Origin: an uncultured Pseudomonadales bacterium | GTDB lineage: Bacteria; Patescibacteriota; Microgenomatia; UBA1400; PJMF01 | Assembly: GCA_964412775.1 (NCBI GenBank) | Contig: CAYPPX010000001.1 | Coordinates: 226,699-290,698, forward strand | Length of the DNA stretch: 64,000 nucleotides | Direction: 5' to 3' | Shown: piece by piece, positions 33,631 to 48,330 of the stretch | Layout of the letters: each line of letters starts with the position of its first letter | Numbering within the stretch: position 1 is the stretch's first letter | Position numbers and translations under genes: made by a program | Notes under the pieces: generated by a model | What the model saw: the letters and a program-made list of their open reading frames with translations, nothing else | Database searches by the model: none | Told to the model about the DNA's origin: nothing

Positions 33631-34053
33631 TCAGAGCAGCATATCAGGTAAATTTTCATAACGACCAGCCTCATATGGTGGGTAGCATATTTCGAAAACT
33701 ACCAAAGCTTCTTTTTCAGTTGCTCGCCATTGCATAATGTCGCCAACTTCTATGTTTTGGGCAAAACCTTCACTGTCCGGACCGACCTTGAAGACCAATC
33801 TTTCTCCACTACTTTTTCTGATAATGAGTTCACCTTTGCCAGAAACATAACCTTCTATAGTCTGATCACCATTTAACACTCTTTGAGGTAGAGTTCTTCT
33901 ATCTGCTTCTATGTAAATAACCCCCAGATCTCTTTCTTTGGTTTCTGGATGAAGATAGGCATCACAGACTACTCCAGGAAAAACTTCTGTTGTTTCGATT
34001 AGTTGGGTAGTTAATGTTTCACCACGGAAACTGAATGATTCTAGTTTTGACAT
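33631..34053 (-). CDS. Hypothetical protein, possibly cupin-like beta-barrel
   Basis: 140 aa; no firm motif. Confidence 0.35.
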   Translation of the reverse strand: MSKLESFSFRGETLTTQLIETTEVFPGVVCDAYLHPETKERDLGVIYIEADRRTLPQRVLNGDQTIEGYVSGKGELIIRKSSGERLVFKVGPDSEGFAQNIEVGDIMQWRATEKEALVVFEICYPPYEAGRYENLPDMLL

Positions 34054-34082
34054 AAGTAAGTTACTAAAGTTTATTCTTGTTT

Positions 34083-34130
34083 TGGCGGAGCACCCGGGTC
34101 TGGAACCCGTACGGCCTTATAACCGCTCAC
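34083..34130 (-). other. tRNA 3'-half-like fragment (T-arm, acceptor 3' strand and CCA); candidate left attachment-site remnant
   Basis: Reverse complement ends ...GGGTTCCAGACCCGGGTGCTCCGCCA. No matching 5' acceptor strand (GG[AG]G[CT][AG][CT]) exists upstream. It shares the core GTTTGGCGGAG with the 3' end of tRNA-Ser(GCT) at 56397. Confidence 0.35.
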
Positions 34131-34226
34131 TACACTAGGTGTGATTATACTCAAAATGAGACAAATAGGACACTATAAAAAGGGAGTGTCTTGTTTTAGA
34201 GTTGATGTGTTTTGATATATTAAATA

Positions 34227-35594
34227 CTACTTATCCCTTTTCAATTCCTCGAATCTCTCTTGCATAGTTGGATTACCCATGGTGAGTCGCTTGATAGTCA
34301 GGTCATCTATCTTGTTTTCGGCTGTGAGCAAATGTTTATCTGAAAGTGTTAGAGCATCTCGTACTTTTTCAAGATTTTTAATTGCATTATTAATTTGCTC
34401 AACCGCTTCAACATGCTTTTGACCTGCGAATTTCATTGATTTCAACCAGCTATTTTTCCATACATTTACCTCATCTTCAAACTTAGTAATATCTATATTC
34501 TGACTCCTAACTATAGCTAATTCAGTTTTATACTTAAGCGAATTTAAAGCGGCATTCCTGAGCAAAGTAATCATTGGAATAAAGAATTGAGGCCTAATGA
34601 CATACATTTTGGGATATTTATGTGATACGTCTACAATTCCGGTGTTATATAGCTCGTTATCAGCTTCTAGTAATGAAACGAGCACTGCATACTCACAACC
34701 CTTGTCATTTCTATCTTTATCGAGCTTTTTAAAGAAATCTTCATTTTTCTTCTTATTCTCTGTATCATCACCCTCGTTCTTCATTTCAAACATGATGCTA
34801 ATGATTTCTACACCTTGATCATTAGTCTCACGATAGATGTAATCTCCTTTTGTACTGCCCTTTGCGTTTCCCTCATTATCTTTTTCAAAGTAGGCATTTT
34901 GAAAAGCAGTGGCTCTAAGCTTATTGAATTCAATTTCACAGTGCTGTTCAAGGGTTTCACCTAGCATTTTGGTCGAGGCTTTGACCTTCAAATCCTTGTA
35001 ATACTCAATCATTTCCTCTTTACTCTTGAGCTCATTTTCATATTTTTCTTTGATAGAGGTAGTAAGAAGTTTTGACTCAGAATCCTTTTTATCAAGCTTG
35101 TGAATTAGTTCATCTCGTTCTTTTTCAACCACCTTGAGAGCTTCTGTGACAGCTAATTTCTTTTCTGTTTGTGCAGCTTCTATTTGAGATTGAAGCTTGC
35201 TAATTTCAGCTTCTTTTTTAGCAATATCTTCTTGCGATGAGCTTTTAGCATTAGCTTCAGCCAACTTAACAGCTGATTCTTTTTCTTTCTCTAAGACCGC
35301 AATTTTTTCTAGTAGTTTTTGCTCTTTTAACTGGGACTCTAATTCTTTTTGTTGTTCAACATTTTTGCGTACTTTCTCAACTTCTGCATCAAAAGTATCT
35401 TTTTTTATCGAATCAACGACACTTTTGATAGTAGTTTTATCGATATCTAGGTCATGTAGTGAAGATAGGTCAATGAGATCACCCTTTTGACCGTCTTCTT
35501 GTAACTCTAGTGTTTGTTCATCACGGATGGATACTTTGATTTTCTTGCTCATATTATTCCAATCTACTCCATAGTTCTGGGAAATTTTCTTCAA
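34227..35594 (-). CDS. DUF2130-like coiled-coil protein with C-terminal nuclease-like globular domain
   Basis: 455 aa; long E/K-rich coiled coil (residues ~70-200) followed by a C-terminal domain with DKGCEYAVLVSLLE. Confidence 0.45.
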   Translation of the reverse strand: MKKISQNYGVDWNNMSKKIKVSIRDEQTLELQEDGQKGDLIDLSSLHDLDIDKTTIKSVVDSIKKDTFDAEVEKVRKNVEQQKELESQLKEQKLLEKIAVLEKEKESAVKLAEANAKSSSQEDIAKKEAEISKLQSQIEAAQTEKKLAVTEALKVVEKERDELIHKLDKKDSESKLLTTSIKEKYENELKSKEEMIEYYKDLKVKASTKMLGETLEQHCEIEFNKLRATAFQNAYFEKDNEGNAKGSTKGDYIYRETNDQGVEIISIMFEMKNEGDDTENKKKNEDFFKKLDKDRNDKGCEYAVLVSLLEADNELYNTGIVDVSHKYPKMYVIRPQFFIPMITLLRNAALNSLKYKTELAIVRSQNIDITKFEDEVNVWKNSWLKSMKFAGQKHVEAVEQINNAIKNLEKVRDALTLSDKHLLTAENKIDDLTIKRLTMGNPTMQERFEELKRDK

Positions 35595-35976
35595 CTACCT
35601 GATAAATATATTGTGTTTCTTTCGTGTTTTTTGGCAGATTATTTTTGCAATAAACAAACAAAATATTTTGTTTGTGTGTTTTGCTGTCAAGAAAAACAAT
35701 GCAACGATTTCCAGACGCTTTAGGAGAAACTCCAGATTGTGCTATAGCAAAATCATATTTGTAAAGCTTGCAATCAGTACCATGTTTCAACTCATCAACT
35801 TGTTGGGTTCTTTGCAATGATGCAATGCGTTTTAATTCTTGAAAAATTGATTCCAAGGTCACCTGCCATCTTTTGCCTTTATATTTCTTGGCAAAACTTT
35901 TTAAATAATGTCGATCAGCGTAGTCACTGAAAAACACTAAGTAATCAACATCATCAGTCAAGAGGCTTGTAAACAT
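35554..35976 (-). CDS. Small basic protein translationally coupled to the Panacea-domain gene; toxin candidate
   Basis: In-frame starts at 36024 (MANISPTV) or 35976 (MFTSLLTDD); either overlaps the 3' end of the upstream antitoxin-like gene. No recognised toxin fold. Confidence 0.35.
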   Translation of the reverse strand: MFTSLLTDDVDYLVFFSDYADRHYLKSFAKKYKGKRWQVTLESIFQELKRIASLQRTQQVDELKHGTDCKLYKYDFAIAQSGVSPKASGNRCIVFLDSKTHKQNILFVYCKNNLPKNTKETQYIYQVVEENFPELWSRLE

Positions 35977-36685
35977 GATTTGGGTCCTCTTGAATGATGA
36001 GACTGTAGGGGATATATTCGCCATCACGACACATCTTCCATGGTTTTTGTTCATGGGTAAAATTAACAATCTCTTGAGTATTTTTGTCTTTCCAAAGGGT
36101 GCATATTTCTTCAATTAAACTTATTTCTTCTTTGCTAAGTAAATCAAATGTCTCATCTCTAGTATTTGAAGAGATGACAAGTGATTTGTCCATAGGAGTA
36201 ATTTTAATTTTACCGGTATCAAATAATTCATCAGTAGTTTGAAAAAAAATATCAGCCACTGGACCGTATTCCATCCGACGATATTTGACTCCACTCATTG
36301 GTTCTAGTTCACTGAAAAACTTAGCAAAGTCAGCAAGATACAACATCTTGGCTAGTTTTGTTTTCTTTATGCCACCAATTTTTTTATCGCTCGCAAATTT
36401 TATAACAGCAAAATACATCTGACGAAACTTCTTAACATTTGGTGTCTCTTCAAAAAAATCAGCAACATCTATGCCGAATAGAGCAGCTAGAGTGGTCAGT
36501 TCTTCAGTGTTTAAATCACGCTCTCCTTTTTCGACTAAGATCCAACGTTGTCTACTTATACCTAGTTTTTTAGCGACATCTTCTTGAGTGAGACCACTTT
36601 GTTCTCGAAGCTTTATTACTTTTTCAGCTAGGGAATTGTAATTATTCATATTTTTCATTGTAACAGGATTTAAAGTTACTGTCAA
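35954..36685 (-). CDS. HTH-XRE + Panacea (DUF4065/SocA-like) domain protein, antitoxin-like
   Basis: N-terminal LREQSGLTQEDVAKKLGISRQRWILVEKGER (XRE HTH), then KTKLAKMLYLADFAKFFSE, characteristic of the Panacea/GepA domain. Confidence 0.55.
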   Translation of the reverse strand: MTVTLNPVTMKNMNNYNSLAEKVIKLREQSGLTQEDVAKKLGISRQRWILVEKGERDLNTEELTTLAALFGIDVADFFEETPNVKKFRQMYFAVIKFASDKKIGGIKKTKLAKMLYLADFAKFFSELEPMSGVKYRRMEYGPVADIFFQTTDELFDTGKIKITPMDKSLVISSNTRDETFDLLSKEEISLIEEICTLWKDKNTQEIVNFTHEQKPWKMCRDGEYIPYSLIIQEDPNHVYKPLD

Positions 36686-36739
36686 TAAAACATAACATAT
36701 GATGTTGCATTTTAGTAACTATTGAGATAGGATCTCACT

Positions 36740-37054
36740 ATGACGCTATCTATACCAACTCAATCAAATAACTATGTTTTTAATGGACCTCACCTAAATG
36801 CGAGCTCCCTTCCAACGAGATCAGGTGTATATGTTATTACTAGAAAATTGGTAAACGGTTCGTACGAAATAATTGATGTTGGCGAATCGCATAATATTTC
36901 CGAGCGTATACCGAGTCACGATCGTATGAATCAATGGAATTTAGCATCAAATAATGTATTCAATGTATGGACATTCTTGGCAGATCAAAATCAGAGGATG
37001 ATTATCGAAAGAGATATTAGAATTACCTACAATCCAATCTGTGGACAGAGATAA
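36740..37054 (+). CDS. Hypothetical protein (104 aa), weak GIY-YIG-like N-terminus
   Basis: SGVYVITRK...IIDVGESHNISERIPSH loosely resembles GIY-x10-YIG. Confidence 0.3.
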   Translation: MTLSIPTQSNNYVFNGPHLNASSLPTRSGVYVITRKLVNGSYEIIDVGESHNISERIPSHDRMNQWNLASNNVFNVWTFLADQNQRMIIERDIRITYNPICGQR

Positions 37055-37059
37055 TTTAG

Positions 37060-38496
37060 ATGAAACTAACAAAATCACTCTTCTTAAGCTACCTAGAATC
37101 TCCACTACATATGTGGTTGTCAGTGCACAGTGATACTCCACCAAAGCCACCATCCCTGTACGACCAACATACGATAAAGCAAGGGTATAGCATTGAAAAA
37201 TTAGCGAAAGAATTTCTACAACGAAAAGTTGCGACTCAGTATCCTGCTGGCACAACACTCTCATTCGAAGCAACACTAACTGATGGGAACTATGAATCTC
37301 GCATTGATGCGTTGGTTCATGACACCGTAAACAATACCTATGATCTGTATGAAATCAAAAGTAGCACCACCATCCACCCTGAGCACAAATATGACGTGAC
37401 CTTTCAGTATTTAGTAGGCAAAGCCACTCTTCCGATCAACAAAGTTTATTTAGTCAGGGTCAACAGTGACTATCAACGAGCTGGGGAGATTGATATCAAT
37501 GAACTCTTCATCGTGGAAGACATGACTGACCACATTGCCAAAAAAGAAGATGAGGTGTATCAACTCAGGTCTGAAGCATGGGGAGTGATGCGACTTGAAC
37601 AAGAACCAAGTGACGAGCATTGTTTTAATCCAGGTACCTGTATCTATCCTGAACACTGCTTCTCTCATCTACCCGATGGCTCAATCTATGAGCTGGGCAG
37701 AGCCAGCAAGAAACAATATAGCGAGCTCCTGGATATGGGAGTGAAGTTGGTCAAAGATATTCCCGATACGTTTACCAGTAACTATAAGCAAAGACTGCAA
37801 ATTCAATCCGCCAGACAAGACCAACCAATCATTGATCACGATGCCATTGCAGAAGAATTAAGTAGGCTGGAATATCCCATCTACTTCTTAGACTATGAAA
37901 CTTATGGCGAAGCCTTACCCATGTACGATGGCTACAAGCCGTATCAGCAGGCAGTAACACAGTTTTCCATCCATGTAGTTCGTCATCCTGGTAGCGATGA
38001 CTTTGAACATTACGAGTGTCTAGCCACAGAATCTGGCGATCCAGCACGACATCTAGCTACAGAGCTGTGCAATGTCATTGGCGACACTGGCTCAGTGATT
38101 GTCTGGAACAAAGGCTTTGAGTGTGGCAGGAATGATGAGTTAGCTATTTTATGCCCTGATCTTTCATCACAACTCAAAAGTATTAATGAGCGAGTTTATG
38201 ACTTGATGGATGTGTTCAAAAATGGCTTGTATGTCGATCACCGTTTCCATGGCAGTGCATCGATCAAAAAAGTCTTGCCCGTGCTATGTCCTGAACTGAG
38301 TTACAAAGAACTAGAAATTGGTGAGGGTACCAAAGCTATGCTTGCTTGGCATGAGATGGTCTATGGAGCTATAACTGCGGAAGAAAAAGAACAAATTAGA
38401 CAAAACCTACTGACCTACTGCAAACTCGATACCTGGGCAATGGTGGAGATTTGGAGAAAACTTAAGCAAGAGCCTCTGAAAGAGACAGCTTTGTAA
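37060..38496 (+). CDS. DUF2779-like protein: N-terminal PD-(D/E)xK (Cas4/RecB-like) plus C-terminal DnaQ/RNase-H-like exonuclease fold
   Basis: D-x-YEIK motif (YDLYEIKSST); Cys cluster CFNPGTCIYPEHC; exonuclease-like YFLDYETYG and KLDTWAMVEIW. Confidence 0.5.
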   Translation: MKLTKSLFLSYLESPLHMWLSVHSDTPPKPPSLYDQHTIKQGYSIEKLAKEFLQRKVATQYPAGTTLSFEATLTDGNYESRIDALVHDTVNNTYDLYEIKSSTTIHPEHKYDVTFQYLVGKATLPINKVYLVRVNSDYQRAGEIDINELFIVEDMTDHIAKKEDEVYQLRSEAWGVMRLEQEPSDEHCFNPGTCIYPEHCFSHLPDGSIYELGRASKKQYSELLDMGVKLVKDIPDTFTSNYKQRLQIQSARQDQPIIDHDAIAEELSRLEYPIYFLDYETYGEALPMYDGYKPYQQAVTQFSIHVVRHPGSDDFEHYECLATESGDPARHLATELCNVIGDTGSVIVWNKGFECGRNDELAILCPDLSSQLKSINERVYDLMDVFKNGLYVDHRFHGSASIKKVLPVLCPELSYKELEIGEGTKAMLAWHEMVYGAITAEEKEQIRQNLLTYCKLDTWAMVEIWRKLKQEPLKETAL

Positions 38497-38967
38497 CATC
38501 ATCACGTACAACTAAAACTATTCTCATATTTAAATCGGTCGGAAGAAGGTTTATTGCTTCTGTTAATTTATGTGCTGATATTTCTACTGGAATCTGATTT
38601 ATGCCAATTCCCAAAGCTGGAAAGGCAATAGATTCCAAACTATTTTTTTGAGACAGCAAAATACTGTTTAAGTAACAATCGGAAAGAGTATCTACACCAT
38701 GTTGATAAAACTTTGGCACAGCGGTATGAATAATACGCTTGAACGGAAGATTAAAAGCAGGAGTGATTATAGCTTTACCGAGTTCTAGAGTATTCTTGTT
38801 TATTTTTGTAATTCTAAGCGACAGTGATTTTCCAATTGAATTTTTCCAGCCCACTTAAATATTTCACCACATAAACCACTTCCAGCCAGCAGGCTTGGAT
38901 GTGCAGGATTAACAATTGCATCGACTTGCTGTTCAAAAATGTCATCTAGCAAGACTTCAATTTGCAT
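38462..38967 (-). pseudogene. Macro-domain (ADP-ribose-binding / deacylase) gene split by a -1 frameshift in an A5 run
   Basis: 38967-38800 encodes MQIEVLLDDIFEQQVDAIVNPAHPSLLAGSGLCGEIFKWAGK (macro N-terminal half). 38854-38462 encodes ...RIIHTAVPKFYQ...SIAFPALGIGINQIPVE (C-terminal half) in the -1 frame. Restoring one A in GGAAAAATTC joins them. Confidence 0.6.
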
Positions 38968-39925
38968 ATGAGAGCAATTCGATAGGAATGTTTTCAGGGA
39001 TAATCGTTGGAATCTTATTTTCTGTTGTTCTGATTCTTGGAAACTTGCTTGAGAAAATTGAGAGCAGACTACTCAGGGGATCAAAAGCTAATCTATTCTC
39101 ATTGAAATAGTTACTTGCTTCAAGCAAATCTTGATCATTATCAGCAATTTTTTCTAAATGATCTTGATTACGCTGATCCCACCTTACTCTGGATTCTTCT
39201 ACCATTCTTTTTACTTCATCTTCAGGTGTTTGAAATGCTTCAAGTTCATTCCAATCGATTGTTTTCCAACTATCATTCTCTAGTGCTGTAATAAACATCT
39301 TATTGAGGTGATCATACCCATCTGCTGTCTTCACAAGATAGTCATGAAACTCTTGGTTGACGTGGTCTGCCTTAAGTAGGCTATCAGCATTTTGTTTAAT
39401 TTTTGTAACATCTGCTGGAAGTTGATCTAACGTGAGCAGCCAATTGTCATAATCCTTAATGTCGTAAATGGATTGATCAATCTGAACTACCAGCATTAAG
39501 GTCTCTGTCATCAAATGTTCATTTCGTTTGCGGTTGCGAAAACTCTCCGAGAGTTTGTGATATTCCAACAAACTTGACTGTTTTAACCCAAGATAATGCT
39601 TATATTTATTTGGTAGAAAGAAGAATATTTTTTCTTGTTTAGAGTTGTACAAAGAGGCTTGTTCTAGTGATGAAAGAGCATTATCCAATTCATTCTCTAT
39701 GGCCTTGCCCAAACTGGCAAAGATCTCATCATCCACACGTTCAGGACCTTGCTGCCGAAGTGAAATACCTTGCTCTGCTTTACCTATAGAAATGTATGCA
39801 TTAGAAAAATTCTGCCGAAAACCTAATTCTAGTTCGTTGAAGTAGAATCTAGGAAACCAAGAAATGAATATGAAAATAGAGACTAGAATTACAAAGATGG
39901 GTATGAAGATATGAATTGTCTTCAT
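38957..39925 (-). CDS. Membrane-anchored hypothetical protein (N-terminal TM helix, 322 aa)
   Basis: MKTIHIFIPIFVILVSIFIFISWF TM segment. 4-nt overlap (ATGA) with the upstream methyltransferase gene, so same operon. Confidence 0.45.
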   Translation of the reverse strand: MKTIHIFIPIFVILVSIFIFISWFPRFYFNELELGFRQNFSNAYISIGKAEQGISLRQQGPERVDDEIFASLGKAIENELDNALSSLEQASLYNSKQEKIFFFLPNKYKHYLGLKQSSLLEYHKLSESFRNRKRNEHLMTETLMLVVQIDQSIYDIKDYDNWLLTLDQLPADVTKIKQNADSLLKADHVNQEFHDYLVKTADGYDHLNKMFITALENDSWKTIDWNELEAFQTPEDEVKRMVEESRVRWDQRNQDHLEKIADNDQDLLEASNYFNENRLAFDPLSSLLSIFSSKFPRIRTTENKIPTIIPENIPIELLSYAN

Positions 39926-42900
39926 TTAGACTGAGCTTCAATAATTTTAATTTCATCATCAGTTAAATTGTATAAGTGGTAAACCATTTCATCGATTTTT
40001 TTCTCTAAATTAATTTGTTCAATTGGTGGCCTTTCTGGATCATATCCATCAACTGAAGTAATTGCCAGCACTTGGTCAGTGAGATCAATAAAAGGCTGTT
40101 GCTCAGTTTCTGAAATTACTTTTATAGGAATTTCTGATAAAGGTCCTTTATAAAGTTCAAGAATATCGCCTTTTCTTTTACCTCTATTATATAGCCACAA
40201 ATAAATCAATTTAGAATTTAAAACAGATAGCAAATAAGCAATTTTCAAATTATTTTTTATAGAAGTTATGTAATAAACATCCCCAGCGCCAATAAGATTG
40301 CCGTTGGTTTTAGCAAATACATTCTTTTTAGAACGATACGGACACACAATATGGTCACCAGTGTCAACCAAGAAACTTCTTTTTGATCCTCTGAGCCAAT
40401 ACCAAGAGTTTTCATCATCGTTGACCTGTTCTCTAGCTTTTAATATTGGACGAAATTTTAAAAGGTAATTCTTTATCCAAGGATAATTTTGAATATTTAC
40501 TTCTGAATCAACATATATGTAGAACATTTCCTTTTTCAAAGAAACAAAAAACCTATGAATATCAGAATTCTTAATAAATGGCTTAATTATTTCATGTCTC
40601 TCAAACTGAGGAACTTTCTCATAAGTTTCAAAATCAATAATATAAATGTTTGATCCAACTTGAATATTATTTTTTGATAGATAATCATGAGTCACAAATT
40701 TATTTTCTAGAGCTCTATTAAGCAAAGCCTTACCAACAACATCTGCTCCAGATTGAACACCCATGTTTATATAACTGAGTTCACCCAAATTGACGCAGTT
40801 TGTTTTTATCTTGTTTAATAATTTTGATTTCTTAGAATCAGAATTATTTATACCTTCAAATCTAATATAGTTATTCTCACCATCATATATCTGACTTTGA
40901 GATAAAGTTAAATACTTGCTTTCATCATTCTTATTGTGAATTATCTCTGTTAACAAGCTTTCGCTAGCCGTACCATTTTTGTTTGTGACAATTATTTTTG
41001 CATGGTTATCTTTATCAATTTGTTTTTCAAAAATAGTGATCATGTTATGTTGCCCAAGAGCAGACTTAAATATTCTAAGTTCATTAAAATTAATTAAATT
41101 CCTAATAACAGATCTAGTTTTTAAGTCTAATCTAAGCTTTTTTGCACCATCAGCTGTAATAAAATAATTAGTTGTAATAAAAGCATTTTGAGATTCTTCT
41201 TTACCAATATTTAATGCTAAATGAAAGAAAAAATAAAAAAGATCCATTTTTCTTTGGTAAAATGACTTTAGATTTCCATTGCTGATTTCTCTAAAGATTT
41301 TTTTATTGCCTTTTTCTCCTACATAAGGTGGGTTCCCAATAACTATATCGAAACCTCCTTTTTCCTTGAATACATCACTGAATTCTAGTTTCCAAATAAA
41401 AAATGGTTTAATATTTTTATGTCTTAGCTTAATTAAATTGTTAAGCTCTTTAATCTTCTTCTGTTCTTTGAATGATTCCTCAATAATTTCCCATTTCAAG
41501 TTATCAATATCTTCTTTTAGTGTCTGTTTTTTTGTTTTCTGTGATTCGTCCACATACTGACTTATTTTATTTTGCAGATCTTCAAGTTTTATTTCTGAGT
41601 TTGATTTGCCAAAACCAAAAGGCAACTGCTCAGCCTTGAATTCTTTAGATTTCTTAAATATTCCTTCATCAAATAACTTAATTCCTTCATACTCCGAAAT
41701 CAGACTATTGCCTTGCATTATTTTGTGGTCAAGGTTGGGGAGTGGACTTGGAGTAGATTCCTCCACAATAAGAGTTAGCCATAAACGTAGTTTGGCGATT
41801 TCTACTGCACCCGGATCGATATCAACTCCATGAATTGAATTAGATATTGCATGTTTTTTAAGTTGGTAGTCAGTTAGTCTCTTATCCAAATAAATGTTTA
41901 ATATTTTTCTAGCTCTAACAATCTCATTTATCATCCCTAACGGAAAAGCTCCTGACCCGACAGCTGGATCAGCCACTTTAATGTTCATTAGAAGTTCATC
42001 CAATTCATCTGCTTTCTTTATAATAGATTCAGCTAATAAGAGCTTGTAAGTCCCAGAATACTTATACCCCTTATTTTCCTTTTCTCTAATCTTTTTTAAA
42101 GCGATGCTGTCATTTTCAATAATTCTATCCCCAGTATAGATAAAACTTTCAATATCTTTTCTATCAATATTGTCAGTTTCTGATTCTAAGTAATTAATCA
42201 AACACTCTTGGCACATGTAATGAACAATTTCTCTAGGAGTATAGAAGGCACCCTTGCTTTTTCTATCTCTGACTTGGAGCAAATTTTCAAAAACCTTGCC
42301 GAGCATTTCTGGATCAACAGCAACCTCCTTTTCCAGTGGTTCATTTTCATTAACCGTAAAGTTATACCTATCAAAAACGTCTAGGATGCCATTACCCCTA
42401 TCTCCATTTTTTGTGGGGATATTATTAGAGAATACTTCGTCAGGAATGTTAATATCAGTTGTTTCCCAAGCGTAATCATTCATTGGCTCAAATAATCCAC
42501 CGTTTAAAAATGGCATCCTACAGTTGTTGAGTTTTGGGTAAAATGAGTTCTTGCCTCTATCCTGAGCCAGTGCCTCATAAAATAGTGGCTCTAATACATC
42601 ATCAAAAAAGTTTTTTCCATATTTTGATCTTCTATCAAATAGCTCTCTTAAAAAGTTTTTAGGTCCATCTCCCCAAGATTTATTTGGAGCTACCCCAAAC
42701 CAACCTTTCTTTTGAAGAAAGTAGAGAAATACAATTTGACCCATTGTCTTCTTTGCAAAATCAACAGTATCAATTTCTTTCGAACTAAACTCGTTTTTGA
42801 TATTTTCATCACTTAAAATTATTTTGTCTAAATTCTCTTTGAAAACCAAGAAAAGCTCCTTGTACTTTTCAAAGAACTCATTGGTTACAACTTCAATATC

Positions 42901-43455
42901 AAATGCTGATTCAAATTCCTCTAAGTTTGGTTTCTGATTGTTTACTAGAAGATTAACAAATCTACTCTGTGCAGTATGAGTACCTTCGTTTTTTCCAACC
43001 AAAAAAGACCATCTTTTTGCTGGAGTAATTTCTTCTATCGTAGTTATCTTGTTGTTTTTAACTTCTAGAGAGTGATCAAGCTTAATAAGTGAAAAACGCC
43101 AATCACTTTTACTTTGAGGGATGAACGCAACCAATGCAGCTAATTTATTATTAGATTTTAGATAGTCTGCAACAAAATTCCTTTGGGCAGTTCTTGCTTT
43201 ATCCAGAGATTTATCATTTGTTAAGCTTACTTCTAAAATATCTATCTTTTGTGATCTATCGTCTTCAAAATAGCCAATGACCTTATAGTTATCTATAAAT
43301 GGCTTAAAAGAATCTTTTACATACGTATTGTCAACATTTTTGTTAACTCTCGTAAAAACTTTCAGCAAATTACTAATAAATAGCTGAAACTTACTATCGT
43401 TAAACTCTGTACTAAAAACTTCCTTGATTATTCTTTTAGCATCATTCTGATTCAT
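39922..43455 (-). CDS. MmeI/PglX-like large N6-adenine DNA methyltransferase (1177 aa) with degenerate N-terminal nuclease-like domain and C-terminal specificity region
   Basis: Motif I ADPAVGSGAFPLG and motif IV VIGNPPYVG (gamma-class amino-MTase). N-terminal KIDILEVSLTNDKSLDKA aligns with the MmeI D-x-EMK-x-DLDKA nuclease motif, but Lys is replaced by Ser. Confidence 0.7.
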   Translation of the reverse strand: MNQNDAKRIIKEVFSTEFNDSKFQLFISNLLKVFTRVNKNVDNTYVKDSFKPFIDNYKVIGYFEDDRSQKIDILEVSLTNDKSLDKARTAQRNFVADYLKSNNKLAALVAFIPQSKSDWRFSLIKLDHSLEVKNNKITTIEEITPAKRWSFLVGKNEGTHTAQSRFVNLLVNNQKPNLEEFESAFDIEVVTNEFFEKYKELFLVFKENLDKIILSDENIKNEFSSKEIDTVDFAKKTMGQIVFLYFLQKKGWFGVAPNKSWGDGPKNFLRELFDRRSKYGKNFFDDVLEPLFYEALAQDRGKNSFYPKLNNCRMPFLNGGLFEPMNDYAWETTDINIPDEVFSNNIPTKNGDRGNGILDVFDRYNFTVNENEPLEKEVAVDPEMLGKVFENLLQVRDRKSKGAFYTPREIVHYMCQECLINYLESETDNIDRKDIESFIYTGDRIIENDSIALKKIREKENKGYKYSGTYKLLLAESIIKKADELDELLMNIKVADPAVGSGAFPLGMINEIVRARKILNIYLDKRLTDYQLKKHAISNSIHGVDIDPGAVEIAKLRLWLTLIVEESTPSPLPNLDHKIMQGNSLISEYEGIKLFDEGIFKKSKEFKAEQLPFGFGKSNSEIKLEDLQNKISQYVDESQKTKKQTLKEDIDNLKWEIIEESFKEQKKIKELNNLIKLRHKNIKPFFIWKLEFSDVFKEKGGFDIVIGNPPYVGEKGNKKIFREISNGNLKSFYQRKMDLFYFFFHLALNIGKEESQNAFITTNYFITADGAKKLRLDLKTRSVIRNLINFNELRIFKSALGQHNMITIFEKQIDKDNHAKIIVTNKNGTASESLLTEIIHNKNDESKYLTLSQSQIYDGENNYIRFEGINNSDSKKSKLLNKIKTNCVNLGELSYINMGVQSGADVVGKALLNRALENKFVTHDYLSKNNIQVGSNIYIIDFETYEKVPQFERHEIIKPFIKNSDIHRFFVSLKKEMFYIYVDSEVNIQNYPWIKNYLLKFRPILKAREQVNDDENSWYWLRGSKRSFLVDTGDHIVCPYRSKKNVFAKTNGNLIGAGDVYYITSIKNNLKIAYLLSVLNSKLIYLWLYNRGKRKGDILELYKGPLSEIPIKVISETEQQPFIDLTDQVLAITSVDGYDPERPPIEQINLEKKIDEMVYHLYNLTDDEIKIIEAQSK

Positions 43456-43460
43456 AAGAA

Positions 43461-46400
43461 TTAGTTACCTTTAAAGTATTCTGAGAGAATTATTTCCTTT
43501 TTTGTTGACGTGTTCATATTTACACCACTATCTGAATCTTCTAAAAATTCTGATGGAAGAGTAGTTTTTAAAATCCCCAAAATTTTAATTGGATTATTAA
43601 TAATCTCAATATTTTGAGATAGTTCTTGATAAATTTTCTGAGTTATTTTTTTGGGGATACCTCCACTATTAAGTTCAATGATAACTCTTCGGACATAGTC
43701 TTCATCATCTTCAGTAAATTTTTCATAATTTTTAACTTGCTTAGCGTTTAATATTTTATAAAGTCTAGCGGCATTATCTCTACTTCCTCTTTTGGTTGAA
43801 AATTCGTTTTCTTCATAATCTTCCATCTGATTTAACATAGAAAGATTTTTTTCAAGCAATTTGTAGAACAATTCATCAATTGCTAGTTTCTTCTCATTAA
43901 CATCAGCATGTAATATTTTTGCTGCTTCAATAAAGTCTATTTCACGCGCATCTGCAGAAGCAGAATTTTCGACAATAAAGAATTTTTGAATTTTCCCTTT
44001 TCTAAAGTATGTTAAAAGTTCTGTTTTTAAATTCTGGGATCTTCTTGCGGTACGAGCTTTTTTTGGGAGTCTTTTTATTTTTGCAAATAGCTTGGGATCA
44101 TTATCTCTGATATTTCTAATTTCTTGCAAATACCCCAAATCGCTTTCTTCATTTTGGTCTTCTCCCTCAATCATTTCCTTTGAAAGCATTCGGCTAAATA
44201 AGCTATGGCCTTCTGGAACTTCGTCATCTGTGAGAAGCTTGGCGTCAGCACCAAGCAAGGTAATGAATGCTTGGATTTTTGCTTCAGCTAGCTCCTTTAG
44301 CTTAATTTGCTCATTTGATTGTTCAGTGGGGAATAAAGTATAGGTGTAAATTTCTTTATGCTTGGTATCTACTCTGTTTATACGTCCCACTCTTTGCATA
44401 ATCTTGGTTGGATTCCAAGGAATATCATAGTTAATTACTACATTGGCTTGATGAAGATTAGCACCTTCAGAAAGAACATCAGTAGTTATTAAGACTTTAT
44501 AGTCGTCTTTTAGAATTCTAGAATTTGCATCAAAATTTTCCATCACAATTTCTCTCTCTGCTAGAGAACTGCCTCCGGAAAAATAAATGATTCGTTCTGG
44601 GAAAATGTCTTGTAGGTTTTTCAACAAATATTCTGCTGTTTCTTTTGATTCAGTAAAAATAATTGATTTCCCATTTTTTACCGGTTCTTCCAAAGACAAC
44701 TTTTCTTTAAAAGCTAAAATTTTAGGATCTCTAGAGATATTGGCCCACAGTCGCTTTATATTTCTCAAAATTTCTAAATCTTCATGTAAGTTCTTAATAA
44801 ATTCATCAGTAAAATCTTTTGTCTCAAATTTTTCAGCTTTTTTATCTTCTACTAGCTTATCGATTGACTCTAAATTTCCCTCATCTAAATAGTCAAATAT
44901 TTTTTGTATATGGCTTCTACTGACATAAACGCTTCCGTCCTCATATGCTTCAATAAATTTCTCGTAAGAGGAAATAAATCGATCAATTGTTTTGTTAAAT
45001 GCGTAGAAGCTACTTTCTAGTCTTTTTATCAACAGCATTTTCATGAATTTCATCATGTTTTTCTGTTGGTGCTTTTCTTGGTTGGTAATTCCTTTGTAAT
45101 ATAGAAGCGGAGTGTAACGAGAGTACTTAAAATCATTCGTAATTATTTTTAAAGTCTCAAAAAATACAGTGTCTTCTTCTTTACTAAATTCATAAAAGAT
45201 AGGCGCAGGATCGGCAATTTTAGGAAAACTCATTTTTTGATTTTGTAGATCATCCCCGTAATATTTAACAATCTCGGCTCTAGTTCTTCTGACCATCAAA
45301 TATTTAAGAACTTTTTCCCTAATAAGCCTGGAGTTTTCTTTTGTTACATCAATGTATTTCTGCTTATCTTTTTTACGATCTAAATCTTCTAATTTTTTAT
45401 CCAAAACCTTAAAAAAGCCTTCCAAGTTTGGTAAGTTGGGAATTGTACTTTGTTTAGATCTTTGAAAGAGTTTTATTTGAGAAAGTAGGTCTTTTGGCGA
45501 ATTATTATATGGAGTAGCTGTAACAAGAATAACTTTTTTTCCTCGACAAATTTGGGCTAGCTTTGCATAAGTTTCAGTTTCTTCTGTGCGGAAACGATGT
45601 GATTCGTCAATCAAAACTATGTCAAATTCTTTATGCAAATCCTTATCGATGATTTTATCCAGCATTCCAATTGACTCACATCTATAATCTTTAGATCTGA
45701 AACCAAAGTTTTTGAAAGAATTCTTCCAGCTACCTTCATTATTTTCATCGATCAAGTGAGGAGGAGCTAATACCAAAATTCTTCCAGCTAATTCCTGGCA
45801 AAGCATGGTGCCCATGTATGTCTTACCAAGACCAACAACATCTGATAAGAATACACCACCATATTCATCAACAATTTTCTTTGCATTGATAACAGCATGA
45901 TCTTGATATTTCAGTTCTTTAAAATTATCTGGTCTGTAATTATGACTTAAATTTTCTTCTTCATTAATTTCTTCTCTGAAGTATTCATAGAGAAATTTTA
46001 AATAGAGTTCATATGGAGTAATGTCTTCTCTAATCCAGGTATCATTTTCAATTGTTTCAATATACTTTTCACTGACATCGATGCCATTTTCCCAGAGTTC
46101 GTTAAATTTATTTAATGCAAATTTATAGTCTGAGGGATTTTTAAGTTCAACGTTAAACTCTAAATTATCTACTAAACCACTTTGTGTAAAATTGCTAGAA
46201 CCCGTAATCACCCTTCCAAGATCTCGATCATCTTCATCAAAAGTCATTATGTAGAGTTTTGAATGGATCTTTTCCTCAGGGTAAGCCCTGACTTCAAGCT
46301 TTCCAGATTTTAACCATTCAAGAAACTTATGTACTCCTGCCTCAACCTTATGGTTATTTTCACTCTCATCCATTTCATTTTTAATACTTTCTCCAATATC

Positions 46401-46658
46401 ATCACCAATTTCCTTATATGATTTTGAAACCTGAAGAAGATTGTATGTTTGTCTATTGGTACTAATCCCGATTAAGATTCTGATCTTTTCAGTTTTTTCA
46501 AGCTGAGGGTAGATAGCATAAAATCCACTAGTATAAAAATATCCAACCAAAATATCGAATAAACGAGTGTCTTTAACTAAAACATTAAATCTACTTTTTA
46601 GGTTTTCGCCATTTTCATTAGTAATAAATGTTAAGTCTGTACTCATATTTATACGCAT
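43461..46658 (-). CDS. Fusion of PLD-family (HKD) nuclease domain and SF2/SNF2-like helicase (1065 aa)
   Basis: HKD motif IHSKLYIMTF...GRVITGSSNFT; helicase motifs I VGLGKTY, II VLIDESHRF, III LVTATP, VI QRVGRINR. A 5-nt gap separates it from the downstream MTase gene, so it is co-transcribed. Confidence 0.7.
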   Translation of the reverse strand: MRINMSTDLTFITNENGENLKSRFNVLVKDTRLFDILVGYFYTSGFYAIYPQLEKTEKIRILIGISTNRQTYNLLQVSKSYKEIGDDIGESIKNEMDESENNHKVEAGVHKFLEWLKSGKLEVRAYPEEKIHSKLYIMTFDEDDRDLGRVITGSSNFTQSGLVDNLEFNVELKNPSDYKFALNKFNELWENGIDVSEKYIETIENDTWIREDITPYELYLKFLYEYFREEINEEENLSHNYRPDNFKELKYQDHAVINAKKIVDEYGGVFLSDVVGLGKTYMGTMLCQELAGRILVLAPPHLIDENNEGSWKNSFKNFGFRSKDYRCESIGMLDKIIDKDLHKEFDIVLIDESHRFRTEETETYAKLAQICRGKKVILVTATPYNNSPKDLLSQIKLFQRSKQSTIPNLPNLEGFFKVLDKKLEDLDRKKDKQKYIDVTKENSRLIREKVLKYLMVRRTRAEIVKYYGDDLQNQKMSFPKIADPAPIFYEFSKEEDTVFFETLKIITNDFKYSRYTPLLYYKGITNQEKHQQKNMMKFMKMLLIKRLESSFYAFNKTIDRFISSYEKFIEAYEDGSVYVSRSHIQKIFDYLDEGNLESIDKLVEDKKAEKFETKDFTDEFIKNLHEDLEILRNIKRLWANISRDPKILAFKEKLSLEEPVKNGKSIIFTESKETAEYLLKNLQDIFPERIIYFSGGSSLAEREIVMENFDANSRILKDDYKVLITTDVLSEGANLHQANVVINYDIPWNPTKIMQRVGRINRVDTKHKEIYTYTLFPTEQSNEQIKLKELAEAKIQAFITLLGADAKLLTDDEVPEGHSLFSRMLSKEMIEGEDQNEESDLGYLQEIRNIRDNDPKLFAKIKRLPKKARTARRSQNLKTELLTYFRKGKIQKFFIVENSASADAREIDFIEAAKILHADVNEKKLAIDELFYKLLEKNLSMLNQMEDYEENEFSTKRGSRDNAARLYKILNAKQVKNYEKFTEDDEDYVRRVIIELNSGGIPKKITQKIYQELSQNIEIINNPIKILGILKTTLPSEFLEDSDSGVNMNTSTKKEIILSEYFKGN

Positions 46659-46830: not shown

Positions 46831-47031
46831 GAAATATCAATCTAATTTGCCATTTTTCCTATTGTATTTTCGTTTGGAATGATTTAGCATGAATTTACTC
46901 GCAAGAGTCGTGTGCGGACACGTTAAATGACGCATTTCAAAATAGTTCTTTGTTGTCTCCAGGAGGCAACTAAAAGGTATTTTGGGATGCGTCTTTTTTT
47001 TATCAATTTTTCCGCAGATGAAAGGAGTGAT

Positions 47032-48330
47032 ATGCCCAAAAGCATACAGCAATCGTACAAAGTAAAGGAGCTTCGTATCACTGAAGTGCCGATCGAACAG
47101 ATAAAAGAAGCAGACTACAACCCTCGCTTTTTATCGCAGAAAGCAGAAGCGGATCTGACCAAAAGCTTGGAGATTTACGGCTGTACTGAGCCTTTGATAA
47201 TTAACATGTTTCCTGGTCGTGAATACACGCTCGTCTCTGGTCATCAAAGGCTGAAAATCTTAAAGAAACTTGGATATACATTAGTGCCAACAGTCAGTGT
47301 GAATTTGCCACTAGAAGCAGAGATGAAGTTGAACCTTCGTATGAACCGTAATATTGGCGAATTCGATCTAAACTTGCTACGTAATTTCGAGCTTGATGTA
47401 CTGCTTGAGACTGGATTTGACGATTCCGACTTGTCAGCAATCTGGGATGAGGCACTAGAAATTCAGGATGATGATTTTGATGTTGAGCAGGCAGTCATCC
47501 AGCACGCTGAACCAAGAACCAAACCAGGCGATCTGTATCAGTTGGGCCCGCATAGGCTACTTTGCGGTGATGCCACTTCACTTGCTGACATTCAGCGACT
47601 GGTGGGAAATGAAAGAATCGACATGGCGTACTGCGATTCTCCCTTTAATATCAGTCTCGACTACGCCAACGGCGTCAGCACTAAGGGCAAGTATGGAGCG
47701 ACTAAAACCAATGACTCAAAGACAACTGAAGAATATCGTCAATTTCTCCACGATGCAATTAGTAATGCCATTGCAGTGAGTAAGCCAGATGCTCACTACT
47801 TCTACTATATGGACCAAAACTGGATTTGGTTGCTACAGATGCTCTACATGGAGCTTGGCATTAAGCACGAGCGGGTGTGTTTATGGATTAAAAATAATTT
47901 TTCACCCACAAGTGGCAACAGTTTTAACAAATGTTATGAACCTGTAATTTATGGTGTGCGTGGCAAGCCATACCGCAACCCAAAGTTACTCAATCTTAAC
48001 GAGATTTTAAACAAAGAGGTCGGGACTGGTAATAGGTTGCACGATGACATTCTAGACCTAATGGAAATTTGGTTGGTCAAACGTAAGGCTGGGCAGGACT
48101 ATCTTCACCCAACTGAAAAATTGCCATCTCTTCACGAAAAAGCTTTAAGGCGATGCACGAAACCAGGAGACCTTGTGCTCGATACTTTCGGTGGTAGTGG
48201 TTCCCTAATGGTGTCCTGTGAACAGTTAAAACGTAGAGCCTACCTTTGCGAACTCGATCCAGTCTTTTGCGACGTGGTTATTGACCGCTATACAAAATTA
48301 ACCGGAAAGGAACCAATCTTATGCAAATAA
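47032..48330 (+). CDS. ParB-like nuclease domain fused to N6/N4 DNA methyltransferase
   Basis: N-terminal ParB/Srx fold (KELRITEVPIEQIKEADYNPR...LVSGHQRLKIL), then MTase motifs CDSPFN and LDTFGGSGS. AGGAG RBS before the ATG at 47032. GC-richer than the host. Confidence 0.65.
   Translation: MPKSIQQSYKVKELRITEVPIEQIKEADYNPRFLSQKAEADLTKSLEIYGCTEPLIINMFPGREYTLVSGHQRLKILKKLGYTLVPTVSVNLPLEAEMKLNLRMNRNIGEFDLNLLRNFELDVLLETGFDDSDLSAIWDEALEIQDDDFDVEQAVIQHAEPRTKPGDLYQLGPHRLLCGDATSLADIQRLVGNERIDMAYCDSPFNISLDYANGVSTKGKYGATKTNDSKTTEEYRQFLHDAISNAIAVSKPDAHYFYYMDQNWIWLLQMLYMELGIKHERVCLWIKNNFSPTSGNSFNKCYEPVIYGVRGKPYRNPKLLNLNEILNKEVGTGNRLHDDILDLMEIWLVKRKAGQDYLHPTEKLPSLHEKALRRCTKPGDLVLDTFGGSGSLMVSCEQLKRRAYLCELDPVFCDVVIDRYTKLTGKEPILCK

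Follow-up and report, generated by a model that had tools for sequence, protein, structure and literature searches.

Two overlapping minus-strand genes at 35554-36685 of the DNA stretch analyzed here ("the window", 64,000 nucleotides of contig CAYPPX010000001.1 from an uncultured bacterium placed by GTDB in the Patescibacteriota) are likely to form a bicistronic type II toxin-antitoxin (TA) module of the PanA-PanT kind. The first gene, panA, would encode an antitoxin that joins a helix-turn-helix (HTH) to a Panacea domain, and the second, panT, a toxin with a RelE/HigB-2-like fold. The toxicity of PanT and its neutralization by PanA are proposed here as predictions, as are RNase activity, autoregulation and a phage-defense role of the module. 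An earlier reading, made from the letters and their open reading frames (ORFs) alone (hereafter the sequence-only reading), had suggested a PanA-PanT-like pair at this place, and comparative genomics now supports that suggestion strongly.

Two overlapping genes and their conservation

The longest ORF of panA spans 35954-36685 on the minus strand and encodes 243 aa from a TTG at 36685, the length given by the sequence-only reading. That figure stands for the longest ORF, but the true start is likely the ATG at 36649 (MNNYNS...), giving a protein of 231 aa (35954-36649, minus strand; isoelectric point, pI, 5.5), because the TTG coincides with the -35 hexamer of a predicted promoter (see below) and because PanA homologues are 230-232 aa long. 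The XRE HTH and the Panacea domain with its YLADF motif, both recognized earlier from the sequence, were confirmed: HTH_3 is matched with an E-value of 2.4e-10 (Pfam) at approximately 36455-36613, and SocA_Panacea (PF13274) is matched with an E-value of 3.4e-16 and 60.6 bits (cutoff, 25.7) over profile positions 1-113 of 113. The Panacea/DUF4065 domain lies at approximately 36035-36355, the motif is present as KMLYLADF, and the protein ends in a conserved C-terminal tail, ...IPYSLIIQEDP. PanA homologues fall into 809 clusters at E ≤1e-10, the best 120 of which are all about 231 aa long with the same two domains and are labeled in their sources only as "XRE family regulator".

The candidate toxin gene, panT (35554-35976, minus strand), encodes 140 aa with a pI of 8.9 from an ATG at 35976. 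As the sequence-only reading had noticed, this ATG (35976-35974) lies within the last codons of panA in another frame, ahead of the panA stop at 35956-35954, and the 3' end of panA and the 5' end of panT overlap out of frame by 23 nt (35954-35976, minus strand, from the ORF coordinates), an arrangement that suggests translational coupling. A Shine-Dalgarno-like AGAGGA (35985-35990, minus strand, read from the sequence) is located inside the panA coding sequence, in its QED codons, 9-10 nt upstream of the panT ATG. A purine-rich cAGGAAGA/cAAGAGGA is kept upstream of the toxin ATG in related loci, where a GGA, GAG or AGG motif is present in 68 of 80. The product had been described as a basic protein of about 140-160 aa; the length and the pI bear this out, but with 21 K+R against 17 D+E the protein is only mildly basic. 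The two products have complementary charges, PanA having a pI of 5.5 versus 8.9 for PanT. A longer toxin ORF of 186 aa, starting from a TTG at 36114, was considered and rejected, as close homologues begin at a conserved MF... and are 140-148 aa long; more distant homologues are 128-138 aa long.

A word-indexed search with PanT retrieved 89 clusters, almost all of 140-147 aa and none of them annotated. By an exhaustive search with a hidden Markov model (HMM) at E ≤1e-3, the family comprises about 207 clusters (50% identity), almost always with a length of 130-145 aa, and a profile search returned 256 clusters at 90% identity. The homologues come mostly from Saccharibacteria/Patescibacteria. Across 47 diverse members, K73, R91, K111 and E120 are invariant, and F76, S84, Y109 and T121 are conserved in at least 90% of the same set. 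Because there are many clusters with a conserved length and invariant residues, panT is a real conserved gene and more than a chance ORF.

Species-representative genomes were scanned with exact peptide patterns taken from the narrower alignment of the family (A1), which yielded 76 loci, mostly from Saccharibacteria/Patescibacteria, the others from Coriobacteriia, Clostridia, Bacilli, Endomicrobium and Sphaerochaetaceae metagenome-assembled genomes (MAGs), many of which come from termite or animal guts. Upstream HTH-Panacea ORFs were called with HMMs made from the window's proteins. In 74 of the 76 species-level loci, an HTH-Panacea ORF lies directly upstream of the toxin homologue on the same strand, so that the search for homologues adjacent to Panacea genes found both conservation and synteny. 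One of the two exceptions (L039) is at a contig end. The other (L036, 2000-2525, a Saccharibacteria MAG) has a truncated panA, i.e., an intact-looking 146-aa toxin ORF next to a PanA reduced to its last 33 residues; the toxin there is an orphan, perhaps an inactivated one, unless the truncation is an assembly artefact. Among 80 loci with aligned start codons, an overlap of 11-32 nt between panA and panT (modes 20, 23 and 26) is seen in 65, and a gap of 4-12 nt in the remaining 15. PanA and the toxin have diverged together, their pairwise identities being tightly correlated (r = 0.90, 70 loci). On long metagenomic contigs, three distant homologues each directly follow an HTH+Panacea gene; one pair lies inside a type I hsd operon (L001), another beside DUF2130 and the third beside genes for ribosomal proteins.

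The outer neighbors of the pair belong to many unrelated families, the most frequent being ResIII (8/97), HsdR (5/97) and DUF2130 (4/97). Because the pairing is strict while the other flanking genes are heterogeneous, panA and panT stand out as the conserved, mobile unit. The module does not seem to be typically plasmid- or phage-borne, since tblastn with the toxin gave no match among the plasmids of PLSDB or the phages of INPHARED and since IMG/VR (2.9 million contigs) contains the pair at a single locus (L083, 2289-4481 of UViG_3300027891_000022). On that viral contig, the HTH-PanA and toxin pair adjoins an endolysin-like gene with Amidase_2 and PG_binding_1 domains, and the module may thus occasionally be phage- or prophage-borne. 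Many of the carriers outside the Patescibacteria are termite-gut MAGs of several phyla (Coriobacteriia, Clostridia, Endomicrobium and Ca. Ancillula; loci L019, L020, L024, L042, L049, L051, L063, L065 and L067-L069). The termite-gut archaea Methanobrevibacter cuticularis and M. curvatus are included in PanT cluster T14 of Kurata et al. (2022, PNAS 119:e2102212119), and these distributions hint at horizontal spread of the module within the termite-gut habitat.

Fold and predicted activity of the putative toxin

The product of 35554-35976 had been described as lacking a recognizable fold and as a toxin of possibly new type, and neither description is supported by structure prediction. The AlphaFold2 model of PanT, computed from alignment A1, has a predicted local distance difference test (pLDDT) score of 88.5 and a predicted template modeling (pTM) score of 0.85. 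It consists of a short strand, helices, a four-stranded sheet (residues 60-110) and two C-terminal helices, and it shows the RelE-type alpha/beta fold of the RelE/ParE superfamily, with N-terminal helices packed on a four-stranded antiparallel sheet. When the model was compared with the PDB using Foldseek, nearly all of the top 40 or so matches were RelE/ParE-superfamily toxins. The best was the archaeal RelE 1wmi (E 9.6e-5, TM-score 0.70 on the target), and further matches were Vibrio cholerae HigB-2 8a0x (7e-4), Mycobacterium tuberculosis RelE2 3g5o, RelE1, YoeB, HigB and Escherichia coli RelE. MqsR, the commonest partner of PanA (see below), was detected neither among Pfam matches, in scans to E 1, nor among the top 50 fold matches.

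At the sequence level, the single PanT sequence retrieved nothing significant from Pfam, NCBIfam, PADLOC or the PDB sequences, and the same was true of a narrow profile against the PDB. A broader family profile (A2) matched V. cholerae HigB-2 chains with an E-value of 0.015, the only PDB matches at E <1; the next, an unrelated dehydrogenase, has an E-value of 1.4. In this alignment, the PanT segment '...SakasgnRcivlvd....iLLvYsKnd' stands opposite HigB-2 'GKRGGSRIIYYFLDEKRRFYLLTIYGKNEMSD', so that R91 is paired with HigB-2 R64, Y109 with Y82 and K111 with K84 (numbering of Hadzi et al. 2017). These are residues on which HigB-2 depends: alanine substitutions of R51, R64, Y82 and K84 lower its activity 170- to 3000-fold, with R64 accounting for a 350-fold, Y82 for a 1200-fold and K84 for a 3000-fold loss (PMC5416850). 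Because the model belongs to the RelE superfamily and the HigB-2 profile match comes with a conserved, catalytic-type Arg/Tyr/Lys set, we place PanT in the RelE/HigB-2 family as a divergent member, its fold being drawn from a confident model together with a weak profile match. It would most likely act as a ribosome-dependent mRNase.

PanT shares with V. cholerae HigB-2 (PDB 5JA8, 5MJE and 8A0X; Hadzi et al. 2017) the RelE-type fold, a core motif 'GxR-[IV]-[IV]...LL.[IV]YxKN' that aligns between the two, and a basic loop between strands beta2 and beta3 (SPKASGNR in PanT, GKGKRGGSR in HigB-2). In contrast, their identity in structural alignments is only 9-16%, and PanT, at 140 aa versus 110 aa, is the longer protein, having additional residues at its N-terminus and two helices at its C-terminus. 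The order of the genes also differs from that of HigB-2/HigA-2, the antitoxin coming first in the window, as do the antitoxins themselves, HigA-2 being made of a disordered N-terminal neutralizing segment and a C-terminal HTH while the window encodes an HTH-Panacea protein. The best superpositions of the beta-sheet core are with Pyrococcus horikoshii PHS013 (1WMI) and M. tuberculosis RelBE2 (3G5O), at TM-scores of 0.70-0.73 on the target and root-mean-square deviations of 3.1-3.6 Å; these toxins are nevertheless only 14-19% identical to PanT, and their RelB antitoxins are unrelated to Panacea.

RelE-fold partners of PanA have been catalogued before. Kurata et al. (2022) count no fewer than 88 types of toxin domain among the partners of PanA, the MqsR-like one being the commonest (n = 90), and report HTH N-terminal domains in 343 PanAs. 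In their Dataset S1, PanT cluster T14/pT15 has 16 entries, all 'notest', whose HHpred search gives HigB-2 (99.7%), followed by the aRelE PHS013/1wmi, Rv2865/3g5o and YoeB, i.e., the same structures that the fold search returned for the window's toxin. T14 members are annotated 'hypothetical protein' and include Ca. Saccharimonas aalborgensis WP_015641600.1 and the oral TM7 HOT_356 WP_129619247.1. T14 resembles the window's family in its antitoxin-then-toxin order, in its overlapping or closely spaced genes (-17 to +12 nt), in having HigB-2 as its best remote match and, in its bacterial members, in having an HTH-PanA. Saccharibacteria occur in both families, T14 having been compared by description and architecture. 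T14 accessions (e.g., WP_015641600.1, WP_129619247.1 and WP_067091868.1) were absent from the clusters of 10 looked-up family members, and the S. aalborgensis and TM7 genomes are not among the 76 loci, the scan for which needed exact peptide patterns. We lean toward the window's family being T14 itself rather than a sister family.

How PanA would neutralize such a toxin can be considered in light of two experimentally validated systems (Ernits et al. 2023, PNAS 120:e2305393120). One is the HTH-PanA:MqsR(D2) pair of Lactobacillus rossiae, and in the other, the Bacillus fungorum MqsR(D2):PanA pair, a Zn-binding domain (ZBD), not the HTH-Panacea part, neutralizes. Both resemble the window's pair in setting an HTH-bearing PanA against a RelE-superfamily RNase, but the extra Zn-binding domain of the B. 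fungorum PanA is absent from the window's PanA, and the window's toxin is not MqsR-like. Since the window's PanA carries none of the known extra domains (ZBD, PAD1 or Phd-C-like), the logic of Ernits et al. (2023) makes the Panacea domain and/or the conserved C-terminal tail the likely neutralizing or sensing element. The AlphaFold2 model of PanA has a pLDDT of 70.6, with the HTH and the Panacea helices confident. In a Foldseek search, the HTH alone found solved relatives (C.BclI, the CapH N-terminal domain and ClgR); there was no solved Panacea-domain structure among the PanA fold matches, and the model is of only moderate confidence over its Panacea portion. The stretches of PanA richest in invariant residues, 112-130 and 196-226 (window approximately 35972-36316; LEPMSGVKYRR..GPV and VNFTHEQKPW..C..GE.IPY.LI.QE.P), have a pLDDT below 50, which may reflect a shallow alignment or segments that become ordered only upon binding a partner.

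Promoter, candidate operators and neighboring genes

The best sigma-70-like match within 34000-37200 is a predicted promoter directly upstream of panA (36657-36685, minus strand), with TTGACA and TACAAT separated by 17 nt, a TG extension and 11 of 12 positions matching. Its -10 box ends 8 nt from the ATG at 36649. The Saccharimonadales relatives (L002-L018) are built in the same way, with a -10 box 6-8 nt from the panA ATG and no Shine-Dalgarno sequence, unlike distant members (e.g., from Clostridia and Coriobacteriia), which carry an AGGAGG before panA. Because of this short distance and the absence of a Shine-Dalgarno sequence, the panA mRNA is probably leaderless or near-leaderless. An inverted-repeat search identified a candidate operator, AACAT-N3-ATGTT with the core palindrome CATATG (36694-36706, minus strand), 9 nt upstream of the -35 box, and a second, 7-bp inverted repeat, AGTTACT/AGTAACT, flanks the -35 box on both sides (36674-36680 and 36714-36720). 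Related loci carry the motif 'ACAT..ATGTaAyGT.TTA' a short way upstream of their -35 box. We regard these repeats as candidate operators to which PanA might bind.

Downstream of panT is a gene for a 441-aa DUF2130 protein with an N-terminal coiled coil (34227-35552, minus strand; Pfam DUF2130, E 1.5e-79), which we take to be of the PD-(D/E)XK type. Its ATG lies 1 nt past the toxin stop, and it is probably co-transcribed with panT. Of 82 loci, 5 have DUF2130 immediately after the toxin, namely the window, L002 (4405-5688), L018 (3425-4681), L031 (3435-4607) and L033 (3429-3683). In the first four, the spacing from the toxin stop to DUF2130 is -18 to +2 nt, the toxins of L002, L018 and L031 being 46-66% identical to that of the window. 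DUF2130 was rejected as a core third component of the module on the grounds of its presence in 5/82 loci only; it might be an accessory gene that recurs, or else the site might be one preferred for insertions. Past DUF2130 are genes for GreA and a flavodoxin and metabolic genes.

On the other side, divergent from panA, a 104-aa ORF (36740-37054, plus strand) shows by eye a GIY-YIG-like motif (GVYVI...YEIIDVGES) and has weak PADLOC PDC-S14 matches (E ~1e-3). Six bases downstream of it is a 478-aa DUF2779 protein (37060-38496, plus strand; E 3.4e-40), and the two may form another two-gene nuclease module. A Macro-domain gene (38462-38967, minus strand) is divided between two overlapping ORFs in different frames, of 55 aa (38800-38967) and 130 aa (38462-38854), with the Pfam Macro match of the second ORF starting at profile position 21; a frameshift seems to have split the gene, either because it is a pseudogene or because of a sequencing error. 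The end of an uncharacterized 322-aa gene (38957-39925) is shared with the beginning of a gene for a Type IIG restriction-modification (R-M) enzyme, i.e., a fused restriction endonuclease and methyltransferase of 1177 aa (39922-43455; PADLOC, E 1.8e-194). Beyond it are a 1065-aa HKD/PLD+Snf2 helicase (43461-46658; best PADLOC model 'HKD+Snf2', with weaker DrmD/BrxH) and a ParB-N + N6/N4 methyltransferase (46927-48330). The placement in a defense island made by the sequence-only reading is confirmed by the Type IIG enzyme, the HKD-Snf2 helicase and the methyltransferase nearby; among its relatives the module is also found outside defense islands.

Alternative explanations and significance

As we picture the module, its strong promoter would give rise to a panA mRNA that is probably leaderless, and PanA would probably repress that promoter via its HTH, while translation of panT would be coupled to that of panA by the 23-nt overlap and the internal Shine-Dalgarno-like sequence. 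Left free, PanT would most likely enter the ribosomal A site and cleave the mRNA being translated by means of a RelE-type basic active site (K73, a Lys on strand beta2, with R91, Y109 and K111), leading to translation arrest, and PanA would bind and neutralize it. Several observations weigh against a RelE/HigB-2-like TA toxin. PanT exceeds classical RelE toxins in length by about 30-50 aa, and its TM-scores fall to 0.4-0.47 when normalized to the query. None of the 47 diverse members passes any Pfam model, including those of RelE/ParE/HigB (PF06296, PF05016, PF05973 and PF15723), the best score being that of one member against PF06296 (E 0.014), and the HigB-2 profile match, weak as it is, spans 39 residues only. 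HigB-2 R51 has no aligned equivalent in PanT; 4 residues closer to the N-terminus, the same strand carries the invariant K73, which may plausibly substitute for R51. Lastly, the intact-looking toxin of L036 beside 33 residues of PanA would be odd for an active toxin.

The same TA architecture could house a ParE-like toxin, i.e., a DNA-gyrase poison, RelE and ParE having one fold. ParE structures do occur in the Foldseek list (6xrw at rank 40, 5cw7 at ranks 45 and 48), and ParE is among the toxin domains of PanTs in Kurata et al. (2022), but all better-ranked fold matches are mRNases (RelE, HigB-2, YoeB and HigB), and the sole sequence-level match is to HigB-2, with three aligned catalytic residues that are invariant or nearly so; we consider a gyrase poison quite unlikely. 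The tight junction of DUF2130 with panT, kept in the divergent L002, L018 and L031, and the conserved third 'accessory' genes that Kurata et al. (2022) report in some PanAT loci would suit a three-gene system, panA-panT-DUF2130, in which DUF2130, as a presumed PD-(D/E)XK-type protein, would be an additional effector or accessory in defense. The small number of loci with DUF2130, its lack of a PADLOC match and the existence of the two-gene core without it make such a system very unlikely, and in the part of the supplementary files of Kurata et al. (2022) that was searched DUF2130 was not found.

A highly improbable alternative would have panA encode an XRE HTH regulator, e.g., a controller of adjacent R-M genes, and panT a non-toxic RelE-fold co-factor. 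The PanA HTH does resemble R-M controller (C) proteins (C.BclI 2b5a, TM-score 0.76; PADLOC Control_protein, E 1.8e-7), the module is often in or beside R-M loci, as the ResIII and HsdR counts and the type I hsd operon of L001 illustrate, and L036 retains a toxin gene with almost no PanA. XRE HTHs generally resemble C proteins, however, most neighbors of the module are not R-M genes and differ among loci, and the conservation of catalytic-type residues speaks in favor of enzymatic activity. As for a new toxin type without a known fold, the proposal of the sequence-only reading, it would fit the empty single-sequence searches, but it is refuted at the level of the fold by the confident RelE-superfamily model and the HigB-2 profile match, which leave it with next to no probability. 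Set beside these alternatives, the PanA-PanT module with a RelE/HigB-2-like toxin stays the explanation that we favor.

This module represents neither a new toxin mechanism nor a new kind of system, as the pairing of PanA with a HigB-2-like PanT is already catalogued (Kurata et al. 2022). It adds to the RelE/HigB-2-like toxins paired with Panacea antitoxins a family of about 200 clusters that stands outside Pfam and NCBIfam. One could go further and see in it a Pfam-less, Patescibacteria-centered branch of RelE/HigB-2 in which the Panacea domain directly neutralizes or senses the RNase without a disordered or Zn-binding element, the whole working as a phage-triggered abortive-infection switch in R-M islands, sometimes together with a DUF2130 nuclease. 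We think this extended picture unlikely; if true, the extra C-terminal helices and the strict partnership with a single HTH-Panacea lineage would point to a hitherto undescribed mode of control, and the hosts of the switch would be ultra-small episymbiotic bacteria. The near-perfect synteny would allow annotations to be transferred across the family, as 'RelE/HigB-2-like PanT' and 'PanA antitoxin', and the pair would offer a simple test case of an HTH-Panacea protein that controls a RelE-fold RNase without an extra neutralizing domain. The family is concentrated in the Saccharibacteria/Patescibacteria, bacteria with tiny genomes and few characterized TA or defense systems.

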